From assembly GCF_054482595.1 (NCBI RefSeq), contig NZ_CM137008.1: DNA of 64,000 nt, one strand, 5' to 3'. Shown one piece after another: positions 9,001 through 12,000 of this stretch (its first letter is position 1; every line of letters starts with the position of its first letter). A program made the position numbers.

Positions 9001-12000
9001 TGCCGGAAACGCCATTTTCCAGGAACCACAGATTCACATCAGCCACGTCGCCCACATAGACGAAGTCGCGTTTGAAGTTCTCGCTACCTTCAAACAGCTT
9101 CGGTGATTCACCGTTGTTAAGCTGGGTGTTGAGATGGAAAGCGACGCTCGCCATGCTGCCTTTATGGCCTTCACGCGGTCCATAAACGTTGAAATAACGG
9201 AAGCCAACAATCTGCGAGTTCGCTTCAGGCAGGATTTGACGAACATATTCATCAAACAGGAATTTTGAGTAACCGTAGACGTTCAACGGTTTTTCGTACT
9301 CGCGGGATTCAATAAAGTCGGAGGTGCGTCCGCCGTAGGTGGCCGCGGAAGATGCATACAGGAACGGGATTTCGCGCTCCAGACAGTAGTGCAGCAGCTC
9401 TTTGGAGTATTGATAGTTGTTATCCATCATATACTTGCCATCCCACTCGGTGGTGGAAGAGCATGCGCCTTCGTGGAAAATCGCTTCGACATCGCCGAAC
9501 TCTTCGCCAGCCATAATCTGGATCAGGAAGTCTTCCTTATCCATATAGTCCGCGATATCCAGATCCACCAGGTTCACAAACTTGGTGCCGTCTTTCAGGT
9601 TGTCCACCACCAGAATATCGGTGATGCCTTTATCATTCAGGGCCTTAACGATGTTGCTGCCGATAAAGCCCGCGCCGCCGGTAACGATGATCATAACTGT
9701 AACCTTCGAATTATGGAGTCAGAGACAATCTCAGACACGAATACTTCTATCATATCACTACACGGCGTTGGCTTCAGCCATTCGCCAAAAGTGAGATTGA
9801 TGGACGTTATTTATCCTGAATTTTGCAGAAGTGTTAACGCGTCATCTCGTCGCGACCTATAAGTTTGGGTAATATGTGCTGGAATTTGCCCTGTCTGGAG
9901 AATCGCAATGCGTGGAGAATTTTATCAGCAGTTAACCAACGATCTGGAAACCGCACGGGCGGAAGGGTTGTTTAAAGAAGAGCGCATTATTACGTCTGCG
10001 CAGCAAGCAGATATCACTGTGGCTGATGGAAGCCACGTCATTAACTTTTGTGCCAATAACTATCTCGGGCTGGCGAATCATCCGGATCTGATTGCGGCGG
10101 CAAAGGCGGGAATGGATTCTCACGGTTTCGGCATGGCTTCGGTGCGTTTTATTTGCGGCACTCAGGACAGCCATAAAGAGCTTGAACAAAAACTGGCGGC
10201 ATTCCTGGGGATGGAAGATGCGATTCTCTACTCTTCCTGCTTTGATGCTAACGGTGGCCTGTTTGAAACGCTGCTGGGCGCGGAAGACGCCATTATCTCC
10301 GACGCACTGAACCACGCGTCTATTATTGATGGTGTGCGTCTGTGTAAAGCTAAACGCTATCGCTATGCCAACAACGATATGCAGGAGCTTGAAGCTCGTC
10401 TGAAAGAAGCGCGTGAAGCCGGTGCGCGTCATGTGCTGATTGCCACCGATGGTGTGTTCTCGATGGACGGCGTGATTGCCAATCTGAAGGGCGTTTGCGA
10501 TCTGGCAGATAAATACGATGCCCTGGTGATGGTAGACGACTCCCACGCGGTCGGTTTTGTCGGTGAAAATGGTCGTGGTTCCCATGAATACTGCGATGTG
10601 ATGGGCCGGGTCGATATTATCACCGGTACGCTTGGTAAAGCGCTGGGCGGGGCTTCTGGTGGTTATACTGCGGCGCGCAAAGAAGTGGTTGAGTGGCTGC
10701 GCCAGCGTTCTCGTCCGTATCTGTTCTCCAACTCGCTGGCACCGGCCATTGTTGCCGCATCCATCAAAGTACTGGAGATGGTTGAAGCGGGTAGCGAGCT
10801 GCGTGACCGTCTGTGGGCGAACGCGCGTCAGTTCCGTGAGCAAATGTCGGCGGCGGGCTTTACCCTGGCGGGAGCCGATCACGCCATTATTCCGGTCATG
10901 CTTGGTGATGCGGTAGTGGCGCAGAAATTTGCCCGTGAGCTGCAAAAAGAGGGCATTTACGTCACCGGTTTCTTCTATCCGGTCGTTCCGAAAGGTCAGG
11001 CGCGTATTCGTACCCAGATGTCTGCGGCGCATACCCCTGAGCAAATTACGCGTGCAGTAGAAGCATTCACGCGTATTGGTAAACAACTGGGCGTTATTGC
11101 CTGAGGATGTGAGATGAAAGCGTTATCCAAACTGAAAGCGGAAGAGGGCATCTGGATGACCGACGTTCCTGTACCGGAACTCGGGCATAACGATCTGCTG
11201 ATTAAAATCCGTAAAACAGCCATCTGCGGGACTGACGTTCACATCTATAACTGGGATGAGTGGTCGCAAAAAACCATCCCGGTGCCGATGGTCGTGGGCC
11301 ATGAATATGTCGGTGAAGTGGTAGGTATTGGTCAGGAAGTGAAAGGCTTCAAGATTGGCGATCGCGTTTCTGGCGAAGGCCATATCACTTGCGGTCACTG
11401 TCGCAACTGTCGTGGCGGTCGTACCCATCTGTGCCGCAACACGATCGGCGTCGGCGTTAACCGTCCGGGCTGCTTCGCCGAATATCTGGTGATCCCGGCG
11501 TTCAACGCCTTCAAAATCCCAGACAATATCTCCGACGACCTGGCTTCCATTTTTGATCCCTTCGGTAACGCCGTGCATACCGCGCTGTCGTTCGATCTGG
11601 TTGGCGAGGATGTGCTGGTCTCTGGTGCAGGTCCGATAGGTATTATGGCTGCGGCGGTGGCGAAACACGTTGGTGCACGCAATGTGGTGATCACTGATGT
11701 TAATGAATATCGTCTCGAACTGGCGCGCAAAATGGGTATCACCCGTGCGGTCAACGTCGCTAAAGAAAACCTTAATGATGTGATGGCAGAACTGGGGATG
11801 ACCGAAGGCTTTGATGTCGGTCTGGAAATGTCCGGTGCGCCGCCAGCGTTTCGTACCATGCTCGACACCATGAACCACGGCGGTCGTATTGCGATGCTGG
11901 GTATTCCACCTTCTGACATGTCGATAGACTGGACAAAAGTGATCTTTAAGGGCTTGTTCATTAAAGGCATTTACGGTCGTGAGATGTTTGAAACCTGGTA

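Follow-up and report, generated by a model that had tools for sequence, protein, structure and literature searches.

An ancestral-type promoter spacer between hldD and kbl in an Escherichia coli locus lacking yibB (htrL)

INTRODUCTION

A described counterpart of the locus considered here is that of Escherichia coli K-12, in which yibB (htrL) lies between kbl and hldD (b3617-b3619). Pfam describes the HtrL_YibB family as one of 'unknown function', and members of the YibB family have been found in LOS loci of other bacteria (PMC4172580). A pan-genome study lists yibB/htrL among the variable genes of the waa region (PMC8303582), and a genomic SELEX study of K-12 gives the hexamers of the yibB promoter and reports H-NS binding in the yibB/hldD spacer (PMC3946193). 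The neighbouring gene hldD is required for growth at high temperature (PMC6358824). Primers for typing the outer core have also been published, the R4 pair (waaX and waaW) yielding a 380-bp product (PMC13293308). On mapped hldD/rfaD promoters or on Lrp control of kbl-tdh, we found nothing usable in the open literature.

Here we analyse the same locus in a stretch of 64,000 nucleotides of E. coli DNA (contig NZ_CM137008.1 of assembly GCF_054482595.1), hereafter the window. The initial annotation of the window had reported that the divergent hldD and kbl are separated by a short spacer without htrL, and had regarded this as a second difference from K-12 in the LPS region.

RESULTS

A geneless spacer of 213 bp

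Window bases 8700-11200 are 100% identical to E. coli strain XH990, whose RefSeq annotation shows rfaD and kbl with an equal 213-bp gap and no feature inside it. The locus is made up as follows.

8762-9694, minus strand: hldD (rfaD/gmhD), ADP-glyceromanno-heptose 6-epimerase, 310 aa (ORF list; XH990 rfaD annotation of the identical sequence; tblastn 100%)
9695-9907, unstranded: ancestral-type divergent promoter spacer of hldD and kbl, geneless, 213 bp
9908-11104, plus strand: kbl, glycine C-acetyltransferase, 398 aa (ORF list, XH990 annotation, tblastn)
11114-12139, plus strand: tdh, after kbl

The hldD start codon (complement) occupies 9692-9694 and the kbl ATG begins at 9908, so that the spacer is exactly the 213 bp at 9695-9907 that the initial annotation had given. 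It had also been said to contain no ORF, and a scan of mechanical ORFs of at least 20 aa found no credible one: those touching the spacer are out-of-frame run-ins from hldD or kbl (9389-9862, 9582-9794 and 9865-9975 on the plus strand, 9834-9956 on the minus strand) and a 20-aa ORF on the minus strand (9691-9753) whose ATG falls within the predicted hldD -10 element. The absence of htrL extends to the entire 64-kb window, where neither tblastn with K-12 YibB (best E = 1.1) nor blastn with the K-12 cassette found a homologue. With no YibB match and no credible ORF, the kbl-hldD site of the window holds no gene of PF09612 (HtrL_YibB); as a positive control, K-12 YibB matched this Pfam family at 7.9e-131. 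The spacer contains no Rfam family either, and two chance-level matches (E about 9) both lie within the hldD coding sequence.

The K-12 allele and its cassette

For comparison we used a K-12-type locus (L001), the cassette of which is 100% identical to that of K-12 AG100; in MG1655, yibB is annotated under the match to the query. The order at L001 is rfaD, 303 bp, yibB (285 aa, positions 2799-3656, in the same orientation as kbl), 274 bp and kbl, which gives a spacer of 1435 bp in total. The K-12 spacer is thus long and not equally short, and htrL had been correctly assigned to the interval between kbl and hldD. The difference between the two alleles is, nonetheless, not a clean indel. Close K-12 homology stops at window position 9742 and restarts at 9804, and 61 bp are swapped for about 1283 bp.

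9743-9803, unstranded: 61-bp segment in whose place K-12 has the yibB cassette of ~1283 bp (pairwise alignment with the K-12-type locus)

Within these 61 bp, positions 9743-9783 have a diverged K-12 counterpart. Direct local alignment of the segment with the K-12 spacer gave scores of 16-30, which is near chance, the relation being clear only via outgroups.

The cassette, of ~1.28 kb, has a GC content of 36%, compared with 51% for hldD and 54% for kbl. It carries an intrinsic terminator and its own promoter-like site, TATACA-18-TATAAT, with hexamers identical to those of the SELEX study cited above. Its product is an accessory protein of unknown function, and a PDB sequence search with YibB returned no relative (best E = 0.24). 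As to the vehicle, a transposable element or IS is not apparent, yibB being the sole annotated gene with no transposase beside it, and the cassette borders (L001 ~2544 and ~3826) show no direct or inverted repeats and no target duplication. No copy was found on true plasmids, the single 'plasmid' match being a 4.9-Mb chromosome. Two yibB matches labelled 'Campylobacter phage' are 100% identical to K-12 and probably represent contamination, which leaves no credible phage copy. The base composition, the promoter-like site and terminator, the reported H-NS binding, the unmarked ends and the lack of genuine plasmid or phage copies are all in keeping with a foreign origin. Repeat I9, in which 11 nt of the kbl box recur in inverted orientation within the K-12 cassette, is at about chance level and is not conserved in 'Enterobacter sp. 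Ag1'.

Both conserved promoter halves are kept in K-12, the hldD-side block in the diverged form TAATCATACCATCACA ... CTTCAGCCCTTTACA; the block GAATGGCTGAAG of the window appears as GGGCTGAAGGG on the hldD side of the cassette. Over its first 100 bp, this flank shares 82% identity with that of the Ag1 yibB locus. The variants TAATCATACCAT and TTTACA are common to the K-12 and Ag1 flanks and missing from the short allele, and the K-12 form of the hldD-side block is nearer to the Ag1 yibB locus than to the E. coli short allele. Such diverged, donor-type sequence on the hldD side, combined with the lack of transposon hallmarks, suggests that the allele has been spread or replaced by homologous recombination via the flanking genes.

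The ancestral state of the spacer

We collected hldD from GTDB species representatives and used the best 80 of >600 matches, a set in which E. fergusonii, E. marmotae, Salmonella and Klebsiella do not occur. In 62 of these 80 representatives kbl is directly upstream of hldD and divergent from it, with the following spacer lengths.

212-218 bp, 24/62 representatives: E. albertii (213), Citrobacter, Enterobacter, Kluyvera, Pluralibacter, Cedecea
228-244 bp, 25/62 representatives: Pantoea, Erwinia, Pectobacterium, Serratia, Rahnella, Yersinia, Photorhabdus, Providencia
261-470 bp, 10/62 representatives: Dickeya, Brenneria, Edwardsiella, Xenorhabdus
>1 kb, 3/62 representatives: 'Enterobacter sp. 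Ag1' (L027), Citrobacter youngae (L073), a Plesiomonas MAG (L072)

A spacer of 212-244 bp is therefore found in 49/62 Enterobacterales representatives (among the best 80 of >600 matches), and the window, with adjacent divergent genes 213 bp apart, belongs with them. It also has all of the conserved blocks: TGnTATGAT (9749-9757), GAATGGCTGAAG (9772-9783), CGTKATTTATSCTG (9805-9818), TCATCTCGT (9842-9850) and GGTAATATGTGC (9868-9879). The E. albertii spacer, likewise of 213 bp, is 93.4% identical to that of the window, and Citrobacter spacers, of 214 bp, show 82-84% identity. The 61-bp segment itself is identical at 56/61 positions in E. albertii and at 44-45/62 in Citrobacter.

Taken naively, 'htrL absent' would mean that the lineage of the window lost yibB by excision from a spacer like that of K-12, and the fact that the alleles differ by one block agrees with such a reading. 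However, an excision cannot create the 61 bp at 9743-9803 that are shared with E. albertii and conserved in Citrobacter. The spacer length is moreover within 1-3 bp of that in other genera, and the window retains no yibB remnant. The outgroup alignment effectively refutes a de novo deletion, which we consider exceedingly improbable. Because the 61 bp could not have been restored by a deletion in an allele like that of K-12, we conclude that the short spacer is ancestral and the yibB cassette derived. In other words, the polarity suggested by a 'missing htrL' is reversed: the short spacer is the ancestral as well as the majority state, and K-12 is derived. How long ago the cassette arrived is a separate matter. 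Between Ag1 and K-12, yibB has ~75% DNA identity and the flanking core genes ~80%, and in view of this similar divergence the insertion may be old. Judging by these sequences, an old yibB insertion followed by many losses would stay formally conceivable.

Promoter elements of hldD and kbl

Conservation across genera points to the following elements in the spacer.

9702-9707, minus strand: putative hldD ribosome-binding site GAAGGT, AAGG conserved (every aligned species has AAGG/AGGG 8-12 nt ahead of its ATG)
9749-9757, minus strand: predicted hldD extended -10, TGATATGAT, i.e. TGnTATGAT (by conservation)
9772-9783, minus strand: conserved block GAATGGCTGAAG at about the hldD -35, conserved from E. 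coli to Kluyvera and Pluralibacter
9805-9823, plus strand: conserved kbl upstream box CGTTATTTATCCTGAATTT (CGTGATTTATGCTGCAAAA in other genera), candidate regulator site, conserved to Serratia, Yersinia and Rahnella
9842-9850, plus strand: conserved box TCATCTCGT at about the putative kbl -35, nearly invariant in Enterobacteriaceae
9870-9875, plus strand: predicted kbl-tdh -10 TAATAT (GGTAATATGTGC conserved in Enterobacteriaceae; elsewhere TAAGAT or TAAAAT)
9897-9900, plus strand: kbl ribosome-binding site GGAG (CTGGAGAAT conserved 8 nt before the ATG)

The motif TGnTAT(G/T)AT is present at a constant distance from the ATG in 61/63 hldD upstream regions of Enterobacterales, and would place the hldD start near 9742, with a leader of about 48 nt. 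On the other side, TAATAT and the boxes upstream of it are likely to be the promoter and regulator sites of kbl, and beyond the kbl-side end of the K-12 cassette, retained sequence begins with the kbl upstream box. This arrangement supports the view that the 213 bp may be read as the divergent promoter region of hldD and kbl. The promoter and start-site assignments are drawn purely from conservation, as a strict two-hexamer consensus scan of the spacer yielded no promoter and no terminator. The sequences of the yibB and short alleles differ upstream of about -1 (hldD) and about -105 (kbl), so that the two may not have the same upstream regulatory sites.

A variable centre that accommodates accessory genes

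The multi-genus alignment contains only one non-conserved stretch, of ~20 bp, which separates two conserved halves.

9784-9803, unstranded: non-conserved spacer centre, where conservation in the multi-genus alignment is lowest; position of accessory genes in other genomes

The hldD-side half comprises GAATGGCTGAAG, TGnTATGAT and the leader, and the kbl-side half CGTGATTTATGCTGCA, TCATCTCGT, GGTAATATGTGC and the ribosome-binding site. Among the spacers of >1 kb, that of Ag1 contains a yibB homologue (81% aa identity) in the same place and orientation as in K-12, and that of Citrobacter youngae a GT4-family glycosyltransferase located between both conserved promoter blocks. The spacer centre thus seems to tolerate insertions since they leave both promoters intact, and accessory genes at this ~20-bp centre could travel between strains via the flanking homology. 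The long spacer of the Plesiomonas MAG has a 230-aa ORF that looks TetR-like when its sequence is inspected by eye.

A stem-loop in the hldD leader

Near the 5' end of the predicted hldD leader, 12-15 nt downstream of the -10, lies a potential RNA hairpin.

9718-9736, minus strand: 5'-proximal stem-loop of the hldD leader, RNA GUCUGAGAUUGUCUCUGAC, seven pairs and one U.U mismatch (MFE fold, covariation)

Taken alone, the E. coli hairpin is thermodynamically unexceptional (z = +0.4). We counted pairs across 21 Enterobacteriaceae and folded the sequences one by one. In the 21 Enterobacteriaceae 84.8% of cells are paired, against 78.6% in shuffles (0/500 reach the observed value), and pairing of the stem drops to 23-60% when the partners are slid. 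One stem pair exchanges G-C for A-U in nine of these sequences, and G.U pairs in the stem are found in the hldD sense only. Pantoea, Pectobacterium, Yersinia, Serratia and Rahnella (Erwiniaceae, Pectobacteriaceae, Yersiniaceae) also have a hairpin at this position, of unrelated sequence, and the mean z of per-sequence folds over 61 sequences is -1.8. Photorhabdus, Proteus and Providencia lack the hairpin, and Rfam has no model matching it. Applied to a MAFFT alignment of the leader from 44 species, RNAalifold predicted no structure, the hairpin arms being out of register between families. The stem-loop may be kept by compensatory changes across Enterobacteriaceae, Erwiniaceae, Pectobacteriaceae and Yersiniaceae, and may be an undescribed cis-RNA element controlling how stable the transcript of the hldD-waaFC heptose operon is or how well it is translated. 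Given that hldD is needed at high temperature, a role of the leader element in heat stress is conceivable.

Frequency in E. coli and relation to the outer core

We surveyed 5426 complete E. coli genomes, 5424 of which had any match. The short spacer (at least 80% of the 213 bp in one piece) is present in 3465/5426 genomes (64%) and the yibB cassette in 1959/5426 (36%; 1950 near-complete). The two counts add up to 5424, that is, to every genome with any match, as they should if no genome belonged to both groups. A diverged short spacer (84% identity), associated with the R2 core, occurs in 483 genomes, e.g. PE15. These numbers also speak to a technical origin of the short spacer, namely that yibB was collapsed in assembly or is located elsewhere in the genome. 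An identical 213-bp junction recurs in thousands of complete genomes, the 64-kb window has no YibB-like sequence, and the short-spacer and yibB counts sum to the total, all of which make such an artefact hardly credible.

The outer core of the window is of type R4. In silico, the published R4 primers match exactly at 4443-4462 (plus strand) and 4804-4822 (minus strand) to give the 380-bp product, and the ORF at 4634-5407, before the ligase gene waaL, matches Glyco_transf_25 (GT25, waaX) at 1.2e-51. K-12 genomes align to the window from rfaC onward only. The R4 outer core is therefore the first LPS-region difference from K-12 and the absence of yibB indeed a second one, as had been proposed. 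We took a 60-row sample spread down the ranking of matches to a query running from the outer-core genes through kbl.

R4 (type of the window), GT25 gene, 689 genomes covering at least 80% of the query: yibB absent in 8/8 sampled
R1 (as CFT073), GT2 gene: yibB absent in 18/20, present in 2/20 sampled
Unidentified core type, 49% coverage, matches only from rfaC onward: yibB absent in 6/6 sampled
K-12, O157 and related, matches only from rfaC onward: yibB present
R2, diverged spacer: yibB absent in the sampled genomes

The two yibB-bearing R1 genomes, set against 18 without, rule out a strict link with core type; yibB is a common accessory gene that is not strictly tied to the type of outer core. 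The same patchiness bears on another history, in which the ancestor of the window carried yibB and its spacer was later replaced from a yibB-less donor, e.g. together with the R4 waa cluster. Such a secondary loss would fit the waa region, a known recombination mosaic, as well as the scattered occurrence of yibB within core types, the differing yibB status of K-12 and BL21, and the 98-99% identity of flanking genes between yibB-plus and yibB-minus strains. However, the window bears no sign of a former yibB, the outcome would be indistinguishable from never having had the gene, and the short allele is the state of the majority and of E. albertii. On balance, we regard this history as unlikely, although clearly less far-fetched than a deletion or an artefact.

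DISCUSSION

Taken together, our results make it highly probable that the short spacer of the window is the intact ancestral promoter region of hldD-waaFC and kbl-tdh, and that yibB of K-12 belongs to an inserted foreign cassette, presumably spread by recombination and probably without regulatory consequence for hldD or kbl. According to this scenario, the window would have reached its short-spacer state without any deletion. A foreign, AT-rich cassette of ~1.28 kb, equipped with its own promoter and terminator, would have been inserted into the non-conserved ~20-bp centre and would by now have reached about one third of E. coli, with homologous recombination through hldD and kbl presumably spreading or replacing the yibB allele. 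The core promoter elements of hldD and kbl would lie outside the insertion point and be kept in both alleles; a strain without yibB should therefore be unaltered in heptose synthesis and threonine catabolism, and would lack just one accessory protein.

yibB/htrL is already recognised as a variable gene of E. coli, and its absence here is simply the ordinary majority allele. What is mildly new are two modest leads, the conserved hairpin of the hldD leader and the recurrent insertion at the spacer centre. It is tempting to speculate that the hairpin is an undescribed cis-acting RNA element and that envelope-related accessory genes have landed repeatedly at the centre, but we put this forward tentatively, considering it somewhat less probable than its opposite. 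Both leads touch on how LPS heptose synthesis is regulated and how the waa region has evolved. In practical terms, the two alleles are easily told apart by the length of the hldD-kbl junction (213 or 1435 bp), whereas yibB status is unsuitable as a proxy for the type of outer core. The locus also illustrates reference bias: K-12 is the derived strain here, so that 'missing relative to K-12' must not be equated with loss.

Comparison with known systems places the window as follows. K-12 shares with it the flanking genes, their orientation and the context waaH-tdh-kbl ... hldD-waaF-waaC; the 48 bp adjacent to hldD are identical and so are 103/104 bp adjacent to kbl. It differs in that the yibB promoter, the gene for the 285-aa YibB and the terminator, ~1283 bp in all, replace window 9743-9803, which accounts for 1435 rather than 213 bp. 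The yibB-less strains BL21, CFT073, IAI1, O121:H19 strains and XH990 have the same short spacer (96.7-100% identical in the sampled strains) and show no substantial difference, although the outer core of CFT073 is R1 with a GT2 gene and that of the window R4 with a GT25 gene. The R2-core spacer of PE15 is likewise 213 bp long and without yibB, and its hldD-proximal half is nearly identical, whereas the kbl-proximal half is diverged and Citrobacter-like, bringing overall identity down to 84%. Finally, E. albertii and other Enterobacteriaceae show the same adjacency, a length within 1-3 bp, the same promoter blocks and the leader hairpin, with the spacer sequence diverging from that of the window by 7% in E. 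albertii and by 16-42% in other genera.

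Genes inserted at the centre of the hldD/kbl spacer

The centre of the hldD/kbl spacer (window 9784-9803) is not conserved, and the genes inserted at this point vary by taxon:
E. coli K-12, yibB
'Enterobacter sp. Ag1', L027 (its hldD/kbl locus) 2562-4000, yibB
Citrobacter youngae, L073 2399-4000, a GT4 glycosyltransferase gene
Plesiomonas MAG, L072 2988-4000, a 230-aa ORF, TetR-like by eye

The yibB cassette of E. coli PKF8 (NZ_CP156813.1, ~2949905-2950170) appears to be interrupted or rearranged: the alignment runs from rfaD into the yibB-type spacer and breaks off abruptly 217 bp into it. 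There are also phage and plasmid records that contain yibB. An ORF 100% identical to K-12 YibB is present in two 174-kb phage records without annotation, GenBank MG065686.1 and MG065691.1 ('Campylobacter phage A18a/A11a'), where it likely represents E. coli DNA contamination or chimeric assembly. PLSDB, a plasmid collection, has yibB in a 4.9-Mb record, NZ_CP141089.1, evidently a chromosome misfiled among plasmids. Distant YibB-like proteins (25%) are encoded by two Xanthomonas jumbo phages.

It is worth pointing out that K-12 has, ~90 bp upstream of yibB, a perfect 11-nt inverted copy of the kbl upstream box, the conserved block at window 9805-9823 (CGTTATTTATC; the repeat pair lies at 2702-2712 and 3828-3838 of L001, the K-12-type locus). 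Such a copy is roughly what would be expected by chance in AT-rich DNA, and in Ag1 it is not conserved.

The hldD leader

On the hldD side of the spacer, two elements were delineated:
window 9718-9736, minus strand, stem-loop near the 5' end of the hldD leader
window 9749-9757, minus strand, conserved, predicted extended -10 element of hldD, TGnTATGAT

The -10 element lies upstream of the stem-loop, ~12-15 nt away. Across Enterobacteriaceae the stem is preserved by compensatory changes; in Erwiniaceae, Pectobacteriaceae and Yersiniaceae the stem-loop is replaced by hairpins unrelated in sequence, and in Morganellaceae it is absent. No Rfam family covers the stem-loop.

Outer-core types and the diverged short spacer

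The window strain types as R4 outer core. The published waaX/waaW primers have exact matches in window 4443-4822, giving a product of 380 bp, as expected. Two genes are of note here:
window 4634-5407, GT25 gene, situated before the O-antigen ligase gene
window 5442-6695, O-antigen ligase gene

In 483 of the 5426 complete E. coli genomes the short spacer is just 84% identical to that of the window, as exemplified by:
L003 9001-9213, diverged short spacer of E. coli PE15, R2 core

Since the kbl half of this R2-type spacer is Citrobacter-like and the hldD half E. coli-like, the comparison suggests import of a segment that is linked to the waa cluster of R2 type.
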